Below are positions 49,975 through 64,000 of a stretch of DNA of 64,000 nucleotides, one piece after another. A model generated the notes under the pieces. It was not told where the DNA came from and ran no database searches. It was given only the letters and a program-made list of their open reading frames with translations. Position numbers and translations under genes: made by a program. The stretch lies in assembly GCF_016903815.1 (NCBI RefSeq), contig NZ_CP069974.1; one strand, 5' to 3'. Source of the DNA: Escherichia coli. Lineage in GTDB: Bacteria > Pseudomonadota > Gammaproteobacteria > Enterobacterales > Enterobacteriaceae. Numbering within the stretch: position 1 is the first letter of the stretch; every line of letters begins with the position of its first letter.

Positions 49975-51108
49975 TCAGGATTGCGACACACTTTGTACAC
50001 GATGGGCAAGACGGCGCGTTTCTTCCACGGCCCTGAGTTCATTTGCTTTTTCTATCATTTCTGCGGTTGGTTCAGAAAGTTTTTCAAAAAACTCCTTAAA
50101 CCTCTTTGCAACTGACTGCAGAGAAACACTGTCAGTTCTCGCTGTTTTAAGATTGGTGTAGACGAGGCGGGAAAGGGGTTTGGTCAGTTCCTTCCGTTCC
50201 ATGTATCGTTTGAAGATCCAGAGATAAATATCAACCAGTTCCAGCCCGGCACTCATCGTTCCCGACTGGAAGACAAGCGGTTTTGCTGGCATGTTCTTCA
50301 TATCCATGACAGGCAAACCCGGCCCCAGTGCCCACGGCTGTTCGCGGATCTGGTAGTAAAACTCGTTCAACTCCCGCTGGGTGGTGTTGAACTGTGACTG
50401 CTGGTCAACAATGATATCTGCTTTCCGGTTCGGTGCCCCCAGACGAGAGCAGATCCCGTGCAAAACGGACTGAAAACCAATCATATTGGGCATGATCTGC
50501 AACTTTTCCTTATTGGTTTTGCAGTTGTACCCCAGCTCATCAAAGTTGACCATCGCCCAAGATAGGGCATCGGTAATGAGTTCAACTGAACGGGCATCAC
50601 CCAGAGAGTGAACGCGCTGAAGCAGCACTCCACAAACCTCACTGAATAATGAGCAAGAACGTTCATCATGAGCCTCAAGACGGGCACGCCACGCTTTTTC
50701 AGCCAGCTCATCATCAAACAGATTAGACAGATTCAGCAGCAGGGGATAGCGCAGAGGGGTCCAGTAGGCACTCCAGGGCACAACCGGATTCAGTCCCTGA
50801 TCAAACACCTGGTCGAAGAACGAAATAATGGCGTGATCGCGCTTAACCACCTGCCAGATATCAAACCGTATCCGGTGATTTTTCTGCAGGACCAGCAGCG
50901 TATCCACAACTTCTGAAAGGCGGTGCACGCCCAGTTCCGCAGCGTGCAGGCGCTCCACGCCCAGAGTTTTGCGTAATGCGGCAAGATCCGCTTCAGCAAC
51001 CTTATCTAGGTCAGCCTCTGAGGACAGTACTCCGTAGGAGAGGATTGGCTGGGTTTTGTCAAAAAGGTTTCGGCCAGTCTGGCCTGTTTCATCCACATAA
51101 AAGTGCAT
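49975..51108 (-). CDS. DUF3800-like protein (377 aa)
   Basis: The N-terminus MHFYVDETGQTG matches the [FY]xDE[ST]G signature recalled for DUF3800. The rest is not recognised. Confidence 0.55.
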   Translation of the reverse strand: MHFYVDETGQTGRNLFDKTQPILSYGVLSSEADLDKVAEADLAALRKTLGVERLHAAELGVHRLSEVVDTLLVLQKNHRIRFDIWQVVKRDHAIISFFDQVFDQGLNPVVPWSAYWTPLRYPLLLNLSNLFDDELAEKAWRARLEAHDERSCSLFSEVCGVLLQRVHSLGDARSVELITDALSWAMVNFDELGYNCKTNKEKLQIMPNMIGFQSVLHGICSRLGAPNRKADIIVDQQSQFNTTQRELNEFYYQIREQPWALGPGLPVMDMKNMPAKPLVFQSGTMSAGLELVDIYLWIFKRYMERKELTKPLSRLVYTNLKTARTDSVSLQSVAKRFKEFFEKLSEPTAEMIEKANELRAVEETRRLAHRVQSVSQS

Positions 51109-51370: not shown

Positions 51371-54300
51371 TCAGCGATGTTCAAACCGCGCCACTGGAGT
51401 ATCAGTGATTTCCATCTCTATTTCCCAGAGCGTTTTCATCACACCTTCAAGTGGATCGTCGCTGCTGCGGTAGAAGGTATTGAAAAGGGTTCCATCCGGA
51501 TACCTGAACAGCCTGAGTTCACCAAAGGATTCAGCACTGACCATAAGCGAAAACTCCTGTTCGGAATTGAGGACAAGGTAAATAAGACAGTTATTGATCC
51601 TGAAGGGCAGAGAGCGGCTACCCCTGGCCGATACATCAACATGTATGCTAAACGCGTCATGCCTTTCCGGCTGATAGACCAGTTCCCTCAGTTCCTCGCT
51701 GAAGCGGGAACCATAGATCACCAGAATGTAGTTATTCTGATCAGCGGACCGTTGCGCGACTTCCATTAACAGCGTTTCGAGGTTATTGACCTCAATCGTT
51801 AATTTAGCCTGTGACTGCCACAGTACATAATGCAGTCTGCGGAGAATATTTCTGTTCACTTCTGATACCGAAGGGAAATCTCCGTAGTCAGTCTGATTAA
51901 GCTCTCTGGCAACATACTCTTTGGAAACACCAACAGGAATATATATCGCCAGCCAGTTGCGATCACATTCTGAATTTTGAGTAAACGTGAAGTATTTAAG
52001 CAGAACATCTTCAGACAATGCCCCAGGAAGTTCATTTGTAAGACGAGCATCAGTGTTTCTCAGTCGAGCCTGGTCTACTTCAGCAGCAACGATATCTGCC
52101 GTTTTACTACGACTGAATACATCTATGTATTTATCCAGAACATCATTAAAGAACACCACATTCGTTGCATAATCCGCTTCTGAAATGATATAACCTTCAT
52201 AGGGAACTGAAGGGTCTCGTTTCAGTCGTTTAAGAATAGAAATTATTCTGTCTTTACTGGAATAGGAAAACACCCCTCCAGCCAGGGCTTCATTAACACG
52301 CTGTGTAACCTGCTCCGCAGGCCTTGCGAGCTTTATAGCCAGCAAGGCAAACGCCCCGTAGAGACTCCCTAAATCTTCATATTCCCCTGTATACATACGC
52401 CCGGGAATGTAAGGCCTTTCATTATATGAGTTCATAACCTCAATGGTTTCTGATAACCCGCTGTACCAGCTTGTATTCGTATGCAGATTGCAGTGCTCAA
52501 TTCTCAGTATCATGTCAATGATATCGACAGAACGTCTGAATGCAGGCGTCAGCGTGTCATGTGTATCTCTATCTTCATATAATTCAGACATAATGAGATG
52601 ATTCACAAGATCGGCTAAGTCTATATTTTTTTGCGATTCAAAATGAGCAATAAGATACCCTGCCATTAACAACCGCAAATCGGATAAGGCATTTGCAAAC
52701 ATAATGGACAAAGCGGCATCTTTTTTATACTTGCTGCCCCTGAGTAACATATTCCACTGCGGTTCTGTCTCCTTCAGGGACAGATAATCCGGAGTCAGGA
52801 AGAAACTGTGCCAGCGGTACTCTTCCTCCCAGTAACGTGTAAACCGGCTCTGATTAAACCAGAGGCAGAGAACGTCGTGAGCATATCGCACGGAAGAGGC
52901 ATTATCGGCAACCACTGACGGAATAAGAAGCCTGGCGGTATTATGCAGATGATACATCAGGCGGCCAGTAGAATCTTCACTCCCGGGTTTGCCAGTGATC
53001 GTGGTCATACTCCAGCCTTCCCACAGTCCGATATACCCGCGGATAAGGGCCTGGTGAGTCAGCTCCTGGCTGGCCGAGAGGGGGCCCCCCAGTCCCGCTT
53101 TCCACTCGTTTAACACATGCCACACCCTGAAAAGCGAGAGTAAAAACTGTCTGAAATCGGTAAAACACGTGCTCTGTGTTTTTCTGTACACACGCAATGG
53201 AATGAGCATCGATTCACGGAAATATTCGCCTGAATATTCCGTTGATTTTACGGATTCACGAAAAAACTTTCTCAATTCATAATGGAATGAATCGCTGAAA
53301 GTATGGCTAAAACCTGATTCTTTTACTTCATCCAGATAATTTTTATCGACCTCGTAATTGTAACTTCTTTTGATAGAGGTATAGGTATCTGTTAATCGTT
53401 CAATCCCTGTTCTGAAGACGCTAATATTTTTATCGTTAAGCGCATCGTAAGCCTCACCAAAGAAATCAAAAGTAATATCATCCAGATCCCTTTTGTTCTC
53501 AGGGCGCCCTGTTACAATACAACGACGCAATAACCACCGCCACAATCCTGAAACAGGCTTGACATTTCTCGATGACAATAAAGTCAGTTCACCAGAACGA
53601 ACACCAAAGGAGGGCAGAATGATAATTTCCGCATCCTGCCCATCTACCGCCTCTAGCCTTCTCAGTAGGAATAAAAAAGGCCTTATATAAATATCAGTAA
53701 CAACATCACCTTTACTGATATTAGATTTAACATGAAGCATATCGTCTTTCTCAGAAATTGAGTAAGGCAGTATTTTAATATTACCGAGGTAATTTTGACC
53801 TACATGACCCCCCGGGTAACGCAGCCACGCCTGAATATATGCTTTTTGAATGTAGTCATCCACTATCTGAGATAAAAAAAACTTATTCATTAGTCGATCG
53901 CGTTTGCTCTCATCCAGGACATTCAGACTGGAGACGAAGAACCAGATAGACAGAATAATATTGAAAAGCATCCACACAAAAGCTGTTACGGCAAAAGAAG
54001 TATTAAGATATCCGTCACCTATAGATAACGTCATACCGCCCAGCACGACAAATGCAGCCAGTGAAAGACCACTCAGGCCCGCAAACATATATCCGGAATG
54101 AAGTTGATACGCGGACTGAATATGGATCCTTGCTGATTTCTTTTGAAATAAAACACTTATAAGCCCCACAACCAGCGGAAATACAATACCGATTATAGTC
54201 AACTGGCTACCCAGTAAATTAGACATCCAATCTGAAAGCTTGGTAATGCCCTTAAAATGCTGCACAGCGAAAGGTAGCAATACAGGGCGAAAATATTCGA

Positions 54301-54490
54301 CCACGCCAACAGCCCCGAAGGCTGCGGACCATAGAACCAGCATAGCCCGGACGTAATGGGTGGAGCAGGAAACAAGTATTCTCTCCACCGGGTTCCAGCG
54401 AAGTTTTTTGTAATCCCGGTTCGACTTCAGGCTCCGTCGGAGTTCAGCTCTCACCTGCCATGAGACACTTTTCAGAAGTTTTCCAAACAT
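51371..54490 (-). CDS. large membrane-anchored protein of unknown function (1039 aa)
   Basis: About five hydrophobic helices in the first approx. 190 residues, followed by an approx. 850-aa soluble region with no motif I recognise. AT-rich codon usage. Hairpin GTGACCCCTGATGGGGTCGC follows the stop. Confidence 0.7.
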   Translation of the reverse strand: MFGKLLKSVSWQVRAELRRSLKSNRDYKKLRWNPVERILVSCSTHYVRAMLVLWSAAFGAVGVVEYFRPVLLPFAVQHFKGITKLSDWMSNLLGSQLTIIGIVFPLVVGLISVLFQKKSARIHIQSAYQLHSGYMFAGLSGLSLAAFVVLGGMTLSIGDGYLNTSFAVTAFVWMLFNIILSIWFFVSSLNVLDESKRDRLMNKFFLSQIVDDYIQKAYIQAWLRYPGGHVGQNYLGNIKILPYSISEKDDMLHVKSNISKGDVVTDIYIRPFLFLLRRLEAVDGQDAEIIILPSFGVRSGELTLLSSRNVKPVSGLWRWLLRRCIVTGRPENKRDLDDITFDFFGEAYDALNDKNISVFRTGIERLTDTYTSIKRSYNYEVDKNYLDEVKESGFSHTFSDSFHYELRKFFRESVKSTEYSGEYFRESMLIPLRVYRKTQSTCFTDFRQFLLSLFRVWHVLNEWKAGLGGPLSASQELTHQALIRGYIGLWEGWSMTTITGKPGSEDSTGRLMYHLHNTARLLIPSVVADNASSVRYAHDVLCLWFNQSRFTRYWEEEYRWHSFFLTPDYLSLKETEPQWNMLLRGSKYKKDAALSIMFANALSDLRLLMAGYLIAHFESQKNIDLADLVNHLIMSELYEDRDTHDTLTPAFRRSVDIIDMILRIEHCNLHTNTSWYSGLSETIEVMNSYNERPYIPGRMYTGEYEDLGSLYGAFALLAIKLARPAEQVTQRVNEALAGGVFSYSSKDRIISILKRLKRDPSVPYEGYIISEADYATNVVFFNDVLDKYIDVFSRSKTADIVAAEVDQARLRNTDARLTNELPGALSEDVLLKYFTFTQNSECDRNWLAIYIPVGVSKEYVARELNQTDYGDFPSVSEVNRNILRRLHYVLWQSQAKLTIEVNNLETLLMEVAQRSADQNNYILVIYGSRFSEELRELVYQPERHDAFSIHVDVSARGSRSLPFRINNCLIYLVLNSEQEFSLMVSAESFGELRLFRYPDGTLFNTFYRSSDDPLEGVMKTLWEIEMEITDTPVARFEHR

Positions 54491-55440: not shown

Positions 55441-55477
55441 GACACTCTTTTCAAAGTCAGGAGATAAGGGCACCAAG

Positions 55478-55502
55478 AAACAGCCCGTATACGGGCTGTT
55501 TT
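55478..55502. terminator. bidirectional intrinsic terminator
   Basis: AAACAGCCCGTATACGGGCTGTTTT lies between the convergent vapC and the ATPase gene. Confidence 0.8.
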
Positions 55503-55601: not shown

Positions 55602-57740
55602 TCAAGCGATACGGGCAACCGAGCTCTGGTTTGCTGCCGGTGGCAGGGCGATGAGCTTGTCACATTCCATAATCACGTACTCCGGGATGAGATCGAATCT
55701 GGACGGATCTAGTTGACAGATGAACTCATTTTCAATGTGGTACGTTTCGTTAACGAATTTTCGTATTACCGGATGGTCCTGATCCAGTTCCAGTAAACGG
55801 AATACCTGCAGTTTTTCATAGCCGTTACGACAGCGACGGTACAGGTTTTTTATTTCATCTGGGCTGCTGACGAGAGCCTGAAGTCGCGGGTAATCAAAAC
55901 TGTCCACATACTCCCGGATATCCCGCAAGGCCTGCTGAATTTTCTCAGGAGCCATTTTGGGATAGCCCGAGCCCGCAGCGGCAGGCTCGCGATAATCCAG
56001 CGGGGCGACGCGTCGATGGAATAGATTGGATAGAAGCTGATAAGCATCACCACGTTCGTCAACGATTTCAAAGTAGCGACGAAGATAGATGAGCTTAATG
56101 ATCTCCTCACAGTCTGCTGACGCGGTGATGGATTTGCAGATCTGCATGAATGTCATGATATCGCCGTCGTTAACAGGTAATTCTTCTATGACTCCAGCAG
56201 ACAGGCGCAGGCAGGAGGCGGTCACCTGATTACTGAACAACCTTCTGACTGACTTCAGCGTGTCAATCACAGGCTCCACGTCATGCGTCAGCATAAGTAC
56301 AGTCCGGTTCTTCAGGCATTCACCACTTGCACGTCTGAACAGCATTTCAAGAATGGCAAACTTCTTGTTTTTATCAAAAGAAGATATGGGATCATCAAGG
56401 ATAATCAGTCCCGGGTTTTTTGACAGGCATTCATACATGAATAACACAATCGCAAAGGCGTTCCGTTCTCCATAGCTGAGATGCTGGCTACCGCCGCTGA
56501 CGTACCCGTCAAAATCTATGTGTCGTAGCCTGAGTTTTCTCTGCTCTCCCTCGCCGGCTATATCCACCCTGTATTTATAGCCTGCATAAGTGAGGAAATT
56601 ATTGATGTTTGTTTTGTGCTGTGCGATCAGCCGGATCATGCTGTCCCGGTGCCGGTTAATTTTTCCCTGCAGCGGTCCGGCAAGGTTTATCAGGTCCATA
56701 AGGGCCGCGTTCAGTCTGTCGGTGATCCCCTGCATGAGTTCGGATTGCAGATCAGGGAAGAACTGCAGGTCAATCAACCTGGCAGTGAGCACCTCCCGAA
56801 CGTTCTGCTGTTCCTGCAGGCTGAAAACATTCAGGCCTCTCAGCGCAGTGAGTTTCTCTGTCAGCGTATCGGTCTGGCGTTTCAACGCCACTAGGTACTC
56901 GATATGTTCGGCTTCCGGACCGTTCTGAAGCATAGTAATGGCCAGAAGGCGTTCTCTGGCGCTCTCCGTCAGGTAATTACCGAGGTTTTCCACCAGTCTG
57001 ATGATAGCGGTCAGGTTTTTAATGGTGGATTTATCGTATTCCTCTCTGACTTGGCGAATTTGTGCTTCCTTTCCCGTGATATCACCGGTACAGAACGGAC
57101 AGCAGCCATCCGAAAGGGGCGAAAACTCGAGTCCCTTTGTCTGCCAGTCAATCCATTCCACGCGGCGTTCACTGCGGATGTAGGGTTGATAGTTCTCAAG
57201 ACCAGCCGGAATGTGGTGTATTTTATTTCCGCCTGACAGACCTCTCATGCCGGTTGAAGAACGTGAAATCCCGGAACTGGTTGATTTGAAAGCATTACTG
57301 AGTTCCTGTAGATGGTCTATCAGAGAGTTCAGCTCAGTGTGATCCGTGAAAACAGCCCGGATCTTTTGCGTCATTTCTTCTATTTCACGCTCTCTTTCCG
57401 CATGGGCTTGATTGCGGATAAGAATATTAAAGCTGTCACTGATGAGCTCGTCCGGTTGGAACGTAAACTGACTGACGTACTCCTCGTTGAAGCACATCAC
57501 GTCCCCAATCCCGTCAGCACCGATGACAATGGGCCCGGTGCTATCGGGGTTTTCTCCGCGCAGCCGGAAGGGCATCAGTGCCTGTAGTCCCTGAATGTCG
57601 TCCCGCGCCGCACAGCTTATGGCCCGTGACAGCGTACTTTTTCCAGTACCATTTGGCGCAAACTTAATGTTCAGTTTATCGGCAGTGAGGGTGATATGTG
57701 CTCGTACGATGTTATTGCAGTGGCGTATTTCAATGTCCAT
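55602..57740 (-). CDS. AAA_13/RloC-like ABC-type ATPase with coiled-coil zinc hook (712 aa)
   Basis: Walker A APNGTGKST, signature LSYGERNA, Walker B LIILDDP and H-loop LTHD are split by a long helical insert containing CCPFC. The approx. 170-aa C-terminal domain is of unknown function. Confidence 0.7.
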   Translation of the reverse strand: MDIEIRHCNNIVRAHITLTADKLNIKFAPNGTGKSTLSRAISCAARDDIQGLQALMPFRLRGENPDSTGPIVIGADGIGDVMCFNEEYVSQFTFQPDELISDSFNILIRNQAHAEREREIEEMTQKIRAVFTDHTELNSLIDHLQELSNAFKSTSSGISRSSTGMRGLSGGNKIHHIPAGLENYQPYIRSERRVEWIDWQTKGLEFSPLSDGCCPFCTGDITGKEAQIRQVREEYDKSTIKNLTAIIRLVENLGNYLTESARERLLAITMLQNGPEAEHIEYLVALKRQTDTLTEKLTALRGLNVFSLQEQQNVREVLTARLIDLQFFPDLQSELMQGITDRLNAALMDLINLAGPLQGKINRHRDSMIRLIAQHKTNINNFLTYAGYKYRVDIAGEGEQRKLRLRHIDFDGYVSGGSQHLSYGERNAFAIVLFMYECLSKNPGLIILDDPISSFDKNKKFAILEMLFRRASGECLKNRTVLMLTHDVEPVIDTLKSVRRLFSNQVTASCLRLSAGVIEELPVNDGDIMTFMQICKSITASADCEEIIKLIYLRRYFEIVDERGDAYQLLSNLFHRRVAPLDYREPAAAGSGYPKMAPEKIQQALRDIREYVDSFDYPRLQALVSSPDEIKNLYRRCRNGYEKLQVFRLLELDQDHPVIRKFVNETYHIENEFICQLDPSRFDLIPEYVIMECDKLIALPPAANQSSVARIA

Positions 57741-57888
57741 TTATCTGTCCTTTGCCAGTTATTCCGGGGGGATTCATATCCTGCCGCAAAATGTGCCCGC
57801 ATGCTGTGATGCAGATACATAATACATTTCGTTTATACCATTGCTTACACCTCTCCGAGATGTTCATATCAGAAACAAAGATTAGGTC

Positions 57889-57934
57889 GATCCGACTTTT
57901 ACTTTTTTCGGATCTCTGGAGAGGGGAAGAAGGA
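57889..57934 (+). repeat. hairpin-plus-polypurine junction repeat, copy 4
   Basis: GATCCGA-N12-TCGGATC (57889-57914), then GGAGAGGGGAAGAAGGA (57918-57934). Confidence 0.7.
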
Positions 57935-58204
57935 TTTGTGCTGATGATGCAATACTAATGATATATTTTGAACTTAATTGCATTATTGCTTATCTGGCAT
58001 TAATAACTGAAATACTTTGCATAATTATCAATGAAAGAACGAGGCTCATATTTCCCATGTAAATTATATGCCCTTGCAGAGAGCGAGACGGTAGTGAACT
58101 TGCGGCACTAATAATAAACTGTACCGACTCTTCCCGGGCACTGGAATGTTCAGATGTACGACAGAGCCCCGCGCCTTTTGCAATAAATAATTAAAGGACT
58201 GAAC

Positions 58205-59200
58205 ATGGCGACCACAGTAATAGCTGCCTTTAACGAATTTATGAAAGATACCGTGAATCTCAAAAAGGCAGATACCGATGACGCGCGTGCAAGTCGCGAC
58301 TGGCTTATCGGTAAGATGAATGATTTTGAGAAGGACGATAAATTTCCGGTGAGTTTTCCAGCGATCCATATTGCCTTTGGCTCCTTTGCCAGAAGAACCA
58401 AAATCCGTCCGCTTGATGATATCGATCTGATGTTTGGCTTAACCGGGCAAGGTGCCACCTATACCATCCTGAGTGACCGGATAACTGTAACCTCCTCCGG
58501 AGAGGGGTCACGTCTGCACAGTTACCGCCATTCCGGAGCTGACACCGTCTGCTCCGTCAGAATTCTGAATGCCTTTAAAAACCGCCTGCAGGACATTGCC
58601 CAGTACGCCCAGGCTGATATCAGGCGTAACCAGGAAGCTGTCACGCTGAAACTGGTCAGCAAGGACTGGAATTTTGACATCGTCCCCTGCTTTATTACCA
58701 GCGAAGATGCCTTTGGACGGACTTACTACCTGATCCCCGATGGCAACGGCCACTGGAAGTTTACCGACCCCCGTAAAGACAGGGACAGAGTCACTACTAT
58801 CAATGTGCAGAATAACGGCAATGTGCTCAATGTCATCAGAGCAGTCAAATACTGGCAGCGGCGACCGACGATGCCATCCATGAGTTCCTACCTGCTGGAA
58901 ACGCTGATTCTGGACTATTACGCTGGCAGGACATCCTGCTCATCGTTTGTTGACATGGAGCTGGAAGCGCTTTTCCGCCACCTTGGTCAATCCGTGCGGT
59001 ACTCTGTCAACGATCCCAAAGGCATACAGGGTGATATCAACTCACTTTCAGCCGAGGCACGTAAGGCGATATCGGACAGATGTTATCTCGATGCGCAAAA
59101 GGTATCGGAGGCGAGATGGTTTGAAAATAATAAAGAGTATGAAAAATCCATCAATAAATGGCGCGATGTGTTCGGGCCATTCTTTCCTGTTTACGGGTGA
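58205..59200 (+). CDS. SMODS/CD-NTase-like nucleotidyltransferase (CBASS cyclase)
   Basis: 331 aa with the pol-beta NTase signature FGSFARRTKIRPLDDIDLMF and third carboxylate NFDIVPCF. Confidence 0.75.
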   Translation: MATTVIAAFNEFMKDTVNLKKADTDDARASRDWLIGKMNDFEKDDKFPVSFPAIHIAFGSFARRTKIRPLDDIDLMFGLTGQGATYTILSDRITVTSSGEGSRLHSYRHSGADTVCSVRILNAFKNRLQDIAQYAQADIRRNQEAVTLKLVSKDWNFDIVPCFITSEDAFGRTYYLIPDGNGHWKFTDPRKDRDRVTTINVQNNGNVLNVIRAVKYWQRRPTMPSMSSYLLETLILDYYAGRTSCSSFVDMELEALFRHLGQSVRYSVNDPKGIQGDINSLSAEARKAISDRCYLDAQKVSEARWFENNKEYEKSINKWRDVFGPFFPVYG

Positions 59201-59203
59201 ATC

Positions 59204-60136
59204 ATGAATGCCATTTACACAAACCAGTCGACCAGAGAAAACATGGATTTACTGTATGCGCAGGCCCGTGTCTACGACAGGGTAAAAAACTGGAACAGAC
59301 TGAATTTTCTCTTCAGCATCATCGTACCGCTCCTGCTTTCTTTCGTTACCGTATACAACCGGAGCCGGGAATTTGTCGATTCAGAGTTGTTGTCTTCGCT
59401 GTTGGGGTTATATGGACTCCTGGTGCTTACCTTTAACATTGTTATCAGTGGACACATCTCGGCTCTGCGCAGGAAGGCAGCCTCAATCCAGGAAATGTAC
59501 GACTGCCGGGTACTTGGCATCCGGCGTAATGAACTGAAGGTGGAGGAGATCCCACGGGATGACATCATCCGGGAAGCTGCATATTTTAGAGACAGCCCGG
59601 AAAAAGCACGAAAGCGATTTGGCGAAGAGGGGTGGTACGTCAGTAAGGTGTATGACGCGCCGCAGGCCGTAATGGCGCTCCTTTGCCACGGAAAAAATCT
59701 CGGCTGGGACAAATCGCTCAGGGAGGTTCTGCACGTATTTTATCTTTCCGCTTTTATTGTCTCGCCTGTCGCGATGCTTGTTTACGGCATCGTCATGAAA
59801 TCCGGGCTGAATGAGATCCTCTTCTATGTGGTGTTCACACTGCCGGTCATCCGCTATTTCTTGCTTCAGTTTCTGGATAATCGCAGCAGTATGAAAAGAA
59901 GCGAGAAGCTGAAAAAGTACGTTGAGAAGGAATTATCCGGCATAAGGGTGTCCGGAAGGGCAGAAGAAGAGCAACTGGCTTATACGCTCCGGAATATCCA
60001 AGATGAGATGTTTACCTACCGGGCCTCATGTCCGCCCGTACCCAACGGTATTCAGCTGATAATGAAGCCCAAAAATGAACGAATTTATGTTGATTACTTT
60101 GAAACAAATCTGAAGGAGCTGCACCTTCAGAAGTAA
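59204..60136 (+). CDS. four-TM effector (S-4TM-like) of the CBASS operon
   Basis: 310 aa starting 4 nt after the cyclase stop. Two pairs of hydrophobic helices (about 33-51 and 62-85; 185-208 and 214-233) are separated by a soluble segment. Confidence 0.65.
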   Translation: MNAIYTNQSTRENMDLLYAQARVYDRVKNWNRLNFLFSIIVPLLLSFVTVYNRSREFVDSELLSSLLGLYGLLVLTFNIVISGHISALRRKAASIQEMYDCRVLGIRRNELKVEEIPRDDIIREAAYFRDSPEKARKRFGEEGWYVSKVYDAPQAVMALLCHGKNLGWDKSLREVLHVFYLSAFIVSPVAMLVYGIVMKSGLNEILFYVVFTLPVIRYFLLQFLDNRSSMKRSEKLKKYVEKELSGIRVSGRAEEEQLAYTLRNIQDEMFTYRASCPPVPNGIQLIMKPKNERIYVDYFETNLKELHLQK

Positions 60137-60272: not shown

Positions 60273-60776
60273 TTACTGATAGTGTTTTATGTTCAGATAA
60301 TGCCCGATGACTTTGTCATGCAGCTCCACCGATTTTGAGAACGACAGCGACTTCCGTCCCAGCCGTGCCAGGTGCTGCCTCAGATTCAGGTTATGCCGCT
60401 CAATTCGCTGAGTGTAACGCTTGCTGATTACGTGCAGCTTTCCTTTCAGGCGGGATTCATACAGCGGCCAGCCATCCGTCATCCATATCACCACGTCAAA
60501 GGGTGACAGCAGGCTCATAAGACGCCCCAGCGTCGCCATAGTGCGTTCACCGAATACGTGCGCAACAACCGTCTTCCGGAGCCTGTCATACGCGTAAAAC
60601 AGCCAGCGCTGGCGCGATTTAGCCCCGACGTATCCCCACTGTTCGTCCATTTCCGCGCAGACGATGACGTCACTGCCCGGCTGTATGCGCGAGGTTACCG
60701 ACTGCAGCCTGAGTTTTTTAAGTGACGTAAAATCGTGTTGAGGCCAACGCCCATAATGCGGGCTGTTGCCCGGCAT
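60273..60776 (-). CDS. insB: IS1 InsB
   Basis: 167 aa ...[58 protein letters not shown].... Confidence 0.92.
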
Positions 60777-60970
60777 CCAACGCCATTCATGGCCATATCA
60801 ATGATTTTCTGGTGCGTACCGGGTTGAGAAGCGGTGTAAGTGAACTGCAGTTGCCATGTTTTACGGCAGTGAGAGCAGAGATAGCGCTGATGTCCGGCAG
60901 TGCTTTTGCCGTTACGCACCACCCCGTCAGTAGCTGAACAGGAGGGACAGCTGATAGAAACAGAAGCCAC
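60695..60970 (-). CDS. insA: IS1 InsA
   Basis: 91 aa [88 protein letters not shown]. Confidence 0.92.
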
Positions 60971-61183: not shown

Positions 61184-64000
61184 CTATATTTTTCCGCCTA
61201 CGCCTTTAAACTTCTCAATAAACGAGACGATTTTCTGGAAAACTGCCTGTTTTTTCGTTTTATATTGCGGGTTTAACGGACTAAGTTTTGGTAATGTCTC
61301 GTTTAATTCTGTGCCATTTTCGGTGGCGTATTCGCGTTTTAAAGACGTGCGAATATAGCGTTTCGCCGCCTCTTCATTGAGATTTTCTTCTTTAATCAAC
61401 GCTTCTGCTTCACGTAGCTGTTCGTGTTGAGCAAAGGTAAAGAACGCGTCAATGATGCTGGCTTTGTCTGGTAAATCATCCAGGTTCGTTTGCTGAATAA
61501 AATCGACCACCAGGCCCTCTTTCGCCCGGTTCCCCAGGCTTGAACGAATTAAGCGTTTGACCTCTTCGATCATTTCGCCCTTGCCTTTATTTTGTCTGTT
61601 ATGTTCGAAAATCAGTCCAAGGATATAATCCAGGTTTATTTCCTGAGACTTCAGCAAATCGACCTCAAAAACCACGTCATCCCAGTCAGTGGTTGATTTC
61701 TCTTTTTTCTCAGCTTCTTTCTCACGGCGCTGCCAGTCGCGAATATCGTTATAGGCAGAACGATAATCCTGAATCTTGCGATCAGCAGGGAGACGAATTG
61801 TTTGCAATTCAGCGAGCTTTTCATCATCCACATAATGTTCTGCTTTGAATTTTTCTACTGCAACAGGATCGCTAAGATCGATTTGTTGCAGGGCTTTCAG
61901 CGTGGCAAATTCATCATAGTTTTGCAGGATGTTCTCGGTACGCAGGTATTCACCAAACAGTTTTACGAAGTCTTTCTTCTCTTTTTCACTTTCAATACTG
62001 GCAGGGTCAGGGAACCGTTGTTCCAGTTCTGCAACTACTGCCATAAAGCCGCGCTTAGCTTCACCAGTAGCAGCATCAGTAAAGCCTTCCATATACTCTG
62101 CATAACTCTTTTCTAACACTACATTTTTGGTGTTTTTGTCACCAAACAGCGTTATGGCATCAATAGTTGAGCGTTCCAGATCCCGGAAAGTGACGATATT
62201 ACCGAAGGTTTTAGTGGCGTCATAAATGCGGTTGGTGCGGGAAAATGCCTGCATCAGGCCGTGAAAACGTAAGTTTTTATCGACGAATAGCGTGTTCAAT
62301 GTTGGAGCATCGAAGCCGGTTAAGAACATCCCCACGACAATTAGCAGATCGATATCCTGATTTTTAACCCGCTGGGCTAAATCACGATAGTAGTTCTGAA
62401 AACCGTTACTGTCGGTGCTAAAGTTAGTTTTAAAATGGCTGTTATATTCACGAATTGCAGCGTCCAGAAACTCTTTAGCACTGCTGTCCATTGCGCTGGT
62501 ATCAAAAGTTTCATCGGAAATCTCACCAATGGCATTTTGTTCTTCATTGGCGGCAAAGGAGAAGATTGTCGCAATACGCAGCGGTTTATAGGTAGCCGAT
62601 TTATTAGCGGCTTCTTCTTGTAACCGTTTAAACGTCGCATAATAGGCTTTCGCGGCATCCACGCTGCTCACTGCCAACATAGCATTAAAACCTTTTGAGC
62701 CAGGGAAGGTACGGTGAGTTTTCTGGCGGAAATTATTCAGAATATATTGCGTAATTTCCTGTATACGCATGGGATGAAGAAACGCCTGCTGATTTTCAGC
62801 CGCACTCAGTTTTTTCTCGTCGGTTTCTGTCTCTAAAGACTTAAACTGTGGCCGCACATCGTTGTAGTCCACCTTGAATTTAAGCACTTTTTCATCTCGA
62901 ATCGCATCGGTAATAACATATGAATGCAATTCACGACCAAATACGCTGGCGGTTGTTTCTGAGCCTAAGGCGTTTTCCGGGAAAATAGGGGTACCGGTAA
63001 AACCAAACTGATAATAGCGTTTGAATTTCTTCTTCAGGTTTTTCTGTGCTTCTCCAAACTGGCTGCGGTGGCATTCATCAAATATAAACACCACTTGCTG
63101 ATTGTATACAGGCAGGTCGCTTTCTGCTTTCATCAGGTTATTGAGTTTCTGAATAGTGGTGACGATAATTTTGTTATCATCCTTATCCAGATTTCGTTTA
63201 AGACCTGCGGTATTTTCCGATCCATTGACACTGTCTGGCGAAAAACGCTGATATTCCTTCATGGTCTGGTAATCGAGGTCTTTCCTGTCGACCACAAAGA
63301 AGACTTTATCAATAAAGTCCAGTTCTGTTGCCAGACGCGCGGCTTTAAAGCTGGTCAGGGTTTTACCAGAACCGGTAGTGTGCCAGATAAAGCCACCACT
63401 TTCGGGGGTAGACCAGTTTTTCGCTTTATAGGAGCTGTTGATTTTCCATAAGATACGCTCAGTGGCGGCAATCTGGTACGGTCGCATCACCAGTAGCGTC
63501 TGGCTACTGTCAAAAACGCTGTAGTTCACCAGAACATTCAGCAGAGTATGTTTCTGGAAAAAGGTAGCGGTAAAGTCTTTGAGGTCTTTAATCAGCGTGT
63601 TGTCTGATTTTGCCCAATTCATGGTGAAGTCAAAACTGTTTTTATCGCGCTTTGTCGTGTTGGCAAAATAATGGGTATCGGTGCCGTTAGAAATGACAAA
63701 CAGTTGCAGATACTTAAACAGGGAATTTTCGCTGTTAAAACTCTCTTTACTGTAACGATGTATCTGGTTGAAAGCCTCACGAATCGCCACCCCGCGTTTT
63801 TTTAGTTCGATTTGCACCAGCGGTAAACCATTAACCAGGATCGTGACGTCATAACGGTTAGCATGAGAACCCGTCTGTTCAAACTGCTGGATAATCTGCA
63901 CCTTATTGCGCATGAGATTCTTTTTATCTATCAAATAGATGTTCTCAAGACGCTCGTCATCAAAAATAAAGTCGCAAATATAGTCGATATGGATTTTACG
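61184..64000 (-). CDS. hsdR: type I restriction enzyme R subunit (type IC, EcoR124I-like), 5' end outside the window
   Basis: The reading frame is open to the window edge (…[34 protein letters not shown]…). Helicase motifs HTTGSGKT and [10 protein letters not shown]. Hairpin TCTTGCGGGTT-N-AACCCGCAAGA follows the stop. Confidence 0.9.

Follow-up and report, generated by a model that had tools for sequence, protein, structure and literature searches.

Does a solitary ATPase gene on an Escherichia coli contig encode an anticodon nuclease of the RloC type, or is an RloC-like sensor joined here to something else? The gene lies in a 64,000-nt stretch of NZ_CP069974.1 (assembly GCF_016903815.1), and the whole of this stretch is called the window below. 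Its product was described in a first-pass annotation of the sequence as a stand-alone RloC-like ATPase with a zinc hook, possibly an anticodon-nuclease-type defence. A role in defence against phages is very probable for the protein, and profile alignments indicate that its ATPase and hook scaffold is homologous to RloC-type proteins. The C-terminal effector domain appears to be distinct from that of canonical RloC, and, as far as sequence comparison goes, the anticodon nuclease identity first proposed for it is not recognisable. The coordinates of the gene, of its parts and of the neighbouring features are collected in Table 1.

Every motif quoted in the first-pass annotation was located in the 712-residue open reading frame. 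The ATP-binding cassette (ABC) motifs comprise Walker A FAPNGTGKST (aa 27-36), the signature LSYGERNA (aa 421-428), the Walker B/D-loop LIILDDPISSFD (aa 445-456, including LIILDDP at 445-451) and the H-loop LTHD (aa 484-487); CCPFC, LRRYFE (aa 553-558) and NLFHRR (aa 572-577) are also present. The expected match to the AAA_13 profile of Pfam was obtained (8.7e-18) and is confined to the ATPase parts. The full-length AlphaFold2 model, built with 32 homologs, has a mean predicted local distance difference test score (pLDDT) of 79.6; in it the ABC head is split by an insert at aa ~105-385, and the all-alpha C-terminal domain stands apart. The best PDB matches of this model were the heads of SMC, Rad50, RecN and SbcC with their coiled coils, and PDB sequence and profile searches for a solved relative returned the ABC-transporter signature region only. 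Conservation was determined over 84 divergent representatives of 28-53% identity. K34, P215, C217, S422, E425, D449, D450 and H486 are conserved in at least 97% of them and C214 in 100%. The long helical insertion with a CxxC hook, previously read from the letters alone, is thus found in the model, and its CPxC motif is at least 97% conserved. Since the key residues of both the ATPase and the hook are conserved to this extent, the two parts are functional constraints that remain under selection.

The comparison with RloC was made using a Burkholderia plasmid protein of 878 aa (L090), which carries a CPLC hook and a C-terminal LRLAWE-x48-SSKFEH arrangement fitting the published RloC triad. Alignment of the ATPase family with the L090 clade by hhalign was collinear (Prob 96.3%) and brought Walker A, the CxxC hook, the signature, DDPxSSxD and the H-loop into register. 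RloC (Davidov & Kaufmann 2008, PMC2610378; Klaiman 2012, PMC3458546) also shares the AAA_13-type ABC motifs with DDP[IV]SS[FL]D, the CxxC-hooked helical insert and an additional C-terminal domain that opens with an R-x3-E helix. The length of 712 aa fits the RloC range of 658-897 aa in one polypeptide. Compared with that of RloC, the insert of the studied protein has fewer residues (about 280 aa) and more breaks. PrrC has an ABC head of the same clade, the R-x3-E motif and, like some relatives of the studied gene, a placement between hsdS and hsdR; it differs in having ~340-420 aa, in lacking a coiled coil or hook and in being always found in a type Ic hsd locus. The PADLOC model of PrrC covered aa 421-473 only (3.3e-4), which is the ABC signature region and not the nuclease domain.

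The gene family has already been catalogued as PDC-S06, a computational single-gene defence candidate. In PADLOC, a full-length match was obtained to the PDC-S06 sub-model PDLC04889 (3e-286, aa 1-698 against profile positions 1-688 of 693). The other 12 of the 13 sub-models match only the ATPase and hook part, and none of them aligns past aa ~520. PDC-S06 lumps several AAA_13/hook families, and some of its other sub-models match the canonical RloC-type protein (4e-216 for L090). In the literature searched, PDC-S06 appears in five papers, always as a prediction, and is absent from the systems tested in a Streptococcus thermophilus study; no experimental study of the PDC-S06/PDLC04889-type family and no mention of accession WP_000350635 were found there.

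The C-terminal domain, in turn, is limited to one architecture, because every full-length match is a protein of 680-750 aa that carries it C-terminally. Its profile, run exhaustively with HMMER, returned only 508 representative clusters among 1.84 billion. It has no Pfam family, and its sole match among annotated families is PHROG 2801, which has the same architecture and a function-less annotation. A phage origin was considered on the strength of this match (4.5e-104) and was ruled against by the absence of the gene from all 50,697 phage records searched. AlphaFold2 modelling of the isolated domain (aa 523-712) gave a confident all-alpha structure (pLDDT 84.6, predicted template modelling score 0.80) with no fold neighbour in the PDB; a structural model had been suggested as a check of the nuclease reading, and no nuclease-like neighbour was obtained. 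The only PDB match of the domain profile, YHIENE in an engineered GCN4 zipper, was judged to be due to chance. Comparison of the domain with the RloC-type C-terminal domain by hhalign gave Prob 0.1% and E 0.5, the same as the reversed-sequence controls, in a comparison with one low-diversity clade (Neff ~2) and not with genuine PrrC or Geobacillus kaustophilus RloC. The possibility that aa 576-639 are an insertion in an RloC-type nuclease domain was also considered, and splicing this segment out still left hhalign without a signal.

The domain has a conservation pattern of its own, R554-x3-E558 ... K661-x6-H668. R554 and H668 are conserved in 100% of the representatives, K661 in 98%, E558 in 93% and R555 in 91%, and S571, K643, R648, E665, E670, N671 and Q676 in 90-97%. 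The residue previously taken as the candidate catalytic histidine, H575, is conserved in 72%, against 100% for H668. The invariant K-x6-H block is an addition relative to RloC. Judged from the alignment, these invariant polar residues point to a catalytic or otherwise precisely shaped site. Metal-independent RNases typically have residue chemistry of this kind, with Arg, Glu, Lys and His. The segment of highest conservation, TYHIENEF (aa 666-673; TYHIENE corresponds to nt 55725-55745), has a pLDDT below 50 in the full-length model and is helical in the isolated domain; this difference in predicted order may reflect gating.

With about an even chance of being correct, the protein can be regarded as a single-polypeptide defence switch of the abortive-infection type, which is built on the RloC/PrrC scaffold and uses its C-terminal domain as the effector. 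RNA cleavage would be the most likely output, because the chemistry of R554, E558, K661 and H668 suits a metal-independent RNase. By homology of the scaffold, binding of zinc by the CPxC hook and ATP-driven engagement of the heads would produce a dimer. The switch could respond to DNA, through its ends or through damage, or to the condition of a restriction-modification (R-M) enzyme in the same cell, as shown for RloC (PMC3458546). In RloC, the anticodon nuclease is controlled by the hook and a DNA-dependent ATPase (PMC2610378, PMC3458546). In the studied protein, the output would come from the fused domain of 190 aa, and cleavage of RNA, possibly tRNA, would arrest translation and lead to abortive infection, the domain being presumably toxic. 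That these 190 residues form a new effector (toxin) domain that is unrelated to HEPN, has a new fold and an R554/E558/K661/H668 site, and was grafted onto an RloC-type sensor, is a more specific proposal, which is possible and rather less than probable.

The genomic context was studied in 80 species-level loci, and R-M genes within 10 kb were counted in the 65 of them with at least 8 kb of flank. Such genes were found in 20 of the 65 (31%), with type I in 17 and type III in 3, nearly all on the same strand. When no flank filter was applied, 14 of the 80 fetched loci had a same-strand R-M gene within 400 bp. Among the gene orders seen are hsdR-hsdM-hsdS-[gene], hsdM-hsdS-[gene]-x-hsdR, which is the prrC position, and mod-res-[gene]. 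In a scan of 121 immediate neighbours, the commonest were HsdS, ResIII, HSDR_N, SWI2_SNF2, AlbA_2-type, BrxL, Fic/Doc and SbcCD-like proteins. The largest neighbour cluster occurred at no more than 12 of the 80 loci, so there is no conserved partner gene. On other plasmids, solitary copies lie between insertion sequence (IS) elements or beside a recombinase. Because R-M linkage is frequent, no partner is conserved and solitary copies exist, the gene is autonomous and prefers R-M operons and defence islands. The same pattern has been described for RloC-like ABC-HEPN genes (PMC3710099), and RloC, which is likewise without an obligate partner, is linked to type I/III R-M systems in 8 of 72 cases (PMC2610378). 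In hsd-embedded loci, a 77-aa DUF2188 gene was also observed before the ATPase gene and an AlbA_2/HATPase_c_4-type gene after it, followed by hsdR (L004, 7755-7988 and 10106-11453; also L015, L020, L025 and L038).

A non-enzymatic role of the C-terminal domain was also weighed, with the frequent placement in R-M operons in its favour. The domain would then be an adaptor linking the hook ATPase to the Hsd/Res complex or to another effector in trans, and the protein would be a sensor or regulator of R-M rather than a toxin. PrrC does bind EcoprrI physically (PMC2610378), the domain is all-alpha without a nuclease-like fold neighbour, and the full-length model leaves its best-conserved motif disordered, a common feature of interface segments. 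However, two thirds of the loci lack R-M genes within 10 kb, no partner is conserved, and the copies between IS elements are solitary. The Arg, Lys, His, Glu and Asn residues stay invariant in phyla where the neighbours differ, which is more easily explained by a catalytic site than by an interface made for one partner. An adaptor is accordingly considered unlikely.

Rad50/SbcC, SMC, RecN and LmuB of Lamassu have the same fold, in which a helical insert divides the ABC head, and the CPxC motif has the same form as the Rad50 hook. An improbable alternative is that the protein acts on DNA as an SMC/Rad50-like anti-plasmid or anti-phage device, similar to Lamassu or Wadjet, with the C-terminal domain serving as a new DNA nuclease/nickase or a topoisomerase/recombinase-like module. 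In contrast to Rad50/SbcC, SMC, RecN and LmuB, the studied protein has far shorter arms, a fused C-terminal domain and no conserved partner of the Mre11/SbcD or kleisin type; an SbcD-like neighbour occurs at only ~4-7 of the 80 loci and stands there alongside its own SbcC. At several loci of unrelated taxa, a pair of SbcD-like (Metallophos + SbcD_C) and SbcC-like (AAA_23) genes lies directly downstream of the homolog (L007, 10129-14654; L011, 12097-16622; also L013, L016 and L019). In this subset of loci the pair may be a functional partner, or it may constitute a defence module of its own.

The fusions of an ABC ATPase with a HEPN domain, namely PrrC, RloC and APECO1_4465, were described by Anantharaman 2013 (PMC3710099). 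They share with the studied protein the order of an ABC ATPase and a C-terminal alpha-helical domain, as well as neighbourhood themes of R-M, RhuM, Fic/Doc and BREX/Pgl. K661-x6-H668 resembles the R-x4-6-H motif of HEPN with Lys in place of the motif Arg, E558 standing in an earlier helix; this is a likeness of motif only. The C-terminal domain is larger than HEPN (about 190 aa and roughly 10 helices), no HEPN structure was among the matches of its fold search, and the four-helix up-down fold of HEPN was not found. The triad R554-E558-H575 of a canonical RloC, with a domain homologous to the HEPN-type anticodon nuclease, would agree with the R-x3-E helix followed by His, with the same position after the ABC head as in RloC and with the R-M linkage. 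It is nevertheless very improbable, as the RloC triad is defined as R-X3-E-X36-52-H (PMC2610378), and H575 is only 72% conserved and placed at X16 from E558, outside this range; the only invariant histidine, H668, stands at X109. Neither profile nor fold similarity to the nuclease domain was obtained. The earlier proposal of an RloC-like anticodon nuclease holds as regards scaffold, hook, autonomy and association with R-M; its triad with H575 does not, and the nuclease is unproven. Very distant homology of the domain to the RloC/PrrC nuclease may still exist, because the comparators were of low diversity and the triads of RloC and PrrC were themselves aligned only after manual adjustment (PMC2610378).

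The gene is common on plasmids of E. coli. Many IncF plasmids of this species contain the region with 100% identity and encode the same protein (WP_000350635.1). Among the complete E. coli genomes, 724 of 5,426 (13%) carry the gene, and 748 of the 761 copies are plasmid-borne. In PLSDB, tblastn located it on 925 of 72,556 plasmids, the majority of them conjugative and enterobacterial. The relatives number above 3,600, are all about 700 aa long at ~55% identity, and come from Proteobacteria, Kiritimatiellia, Cyanobacteria, Desulfobulbaceae and others; such a spread is typically seen with strongly constrained genes that move horizontally. About 25% of the E. coli records retain less than 80% of the gene, as truncated copies or remnants. 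Such frequent truncation suggests that the gene is dispensable or costly; partial copies are usual for costly defence genes. The truncated copies include IS600 insertions in NZ_CP071714.1 and NZ_CP074732.1 (H51 and H65), as well as 3' remnants. That the gene is a plasmid housekeeping, Rad50/RecN-like protein for DNA repair, partition or stability is hardly credible, since the SMC/RecN-like fold and the location on conjugative plasmids near ccdAB, vapBC and repE are set against a patchy spread across phyla resembling horizontal transfer, a place within defence islands and inside operons for R-M or BREX, the truncation of E. coli plasmid copies and absence from most IncF plasmids.

In the window, the gene stands in a defence island containing hsdMSR, a cyclic-oligonucleotide-based anti-phage signalling system (CBASS), VapBC and CcdAB. 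It had been described as monocistronic between a bidirectional terminator and an intergenic region, and with an hsdR gene 3.4 kb away behind IS1 and CBASS; both descriptions agree with the present data. The downstream hairpin has an 11-bp stem (dG -17.9 kcal/mol, z -4.8); after the stem comes UUUU when one strand is read and UUUCUU when the opposite one is. The convergent vapBC lies on the far side of the hairpin. A simple terminator scan gave no call at this hairpin because the T runs are short. The region upstream, shared with the divergent CBASS pair, presumably contains the promoter of the gene; no Rfam match was found in the flanks, this region included. The CBASS pair is flanked by IS1. 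The end of hsdR lies 3.44 kb from the start codon of the ATPase gene. In the plasmid record, the same strand carries upstream a complete Phd/Doc-hsdM-hsdS-hsdR set, followed by IS1, the opposite-strand CBASS pair and the ATPase gene. The hsdR of the window is thus part of a complete hsdM-hsdS-hsdR operon beside a Phd/Doc pair, as seen in pEcIMT16316 (L091, 15685-22543). This arrangement echoes the neighbourhoods of R-M, Doc and ABC-HEPN genes reported in PMC3710099. Between ccdAB and vapBC lie, on the minus strand, an open reading frame of 1039 aa (51371-54490), hydrophobic in its N-terminal third and without a Pfam or PADLOC match, and an adjoining DUF3800 gene (49975-51108). The two could be a further uncharacterised defence or exclusion pair.

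Table 1. Positions of the ATPase gene, its parts and the neighbouring features in the window
Feature	Position (nt)	Strand	Remarks
Whole gene	55602-57740	minus	712 aa; WP_000350635.1, 'AAA family ATPase'
ABC ATPase N-lobe, aa 1-105	57426-57740	minus	includes Q91; K34 at least 97% conserved
Walker A, G31-K34-S35	57633-57659	minus	inside the N-lobe
Helical, coiled-coil-like insert, aa 106-385	56586-57425	minus	ABC head split as in Rad50/SMC/RloC
CCPFC, aa 213-217, CPxC zinc-hook motif	57090-57104	minus	conservation; alignment with VCPLC of the RloC-type protein
ABC ATPase C-lobe, aa 386-522	56175-56585	minus	alone, hhalign Prob 95.6% against the RloC-type C-lobe
C-lobe motifs			signature LSYGE 421-425; Walker B/D-loop ILDDPISSFD 447-456; H-loop H486
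All-alpha C-terminal domain, aa 523-712	55605-56174	minus	presumed effector; family-specific
R554-R555-Y-F-E558, R-x3-E in a helix	56067-56081	minus	conservation
K661-F-V-N-E-T-Y-H668-I-E-N-E672, K-x6-H block	55725-55760	minus	conservation
H575, candidate catalytic His of the first-pass annotation	56016-56018	minus	72% conserved only
Palindromic hairpin between the gene and convergent vapC	55477-55502		likely bidirectional terminator
Divergent intergenic region, common to the gene and the CBASS cyclase gene	57741-58204		464 nt
Type I CBASS pair	58205-60136	plus	SMODS cyclase PDLC00802, 4e-152; S-4TM effector PDLC00717, 1e-165
IS1	60273-60970		between hsdR and the gene
hsdR, intact	61184-64000	minus	continues past the window end; IS1 and CBASS lie between it and the gene

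The protein offers a compact one-gene model of a Rad50-like hook ATPase that gates a fused effector, and the orphan C-terminal domain could define a new family of toxins or nucleases. If the effector is indeed new, the RloC/PrrC scaffold would be a modular 'sensor chassis' onto which at least two unrelated effectors have been recruited, one of them being present on plasmids of about one eighth of the complete E. coli genomes. The strong, non-obligate embedding in type I and III R-M loci allows the idea of PrrC as a second line behind restriction to be tested on a far larger family. The carrier plasmids are almost always of the conjugative IncF type and also spread resistance genes. Should the gene actively work as a module of abortive infection or exclusion, it would affect phage susceptibility, and hence phage therapy, and possibly plasmid competition in clinically dominant lineages.
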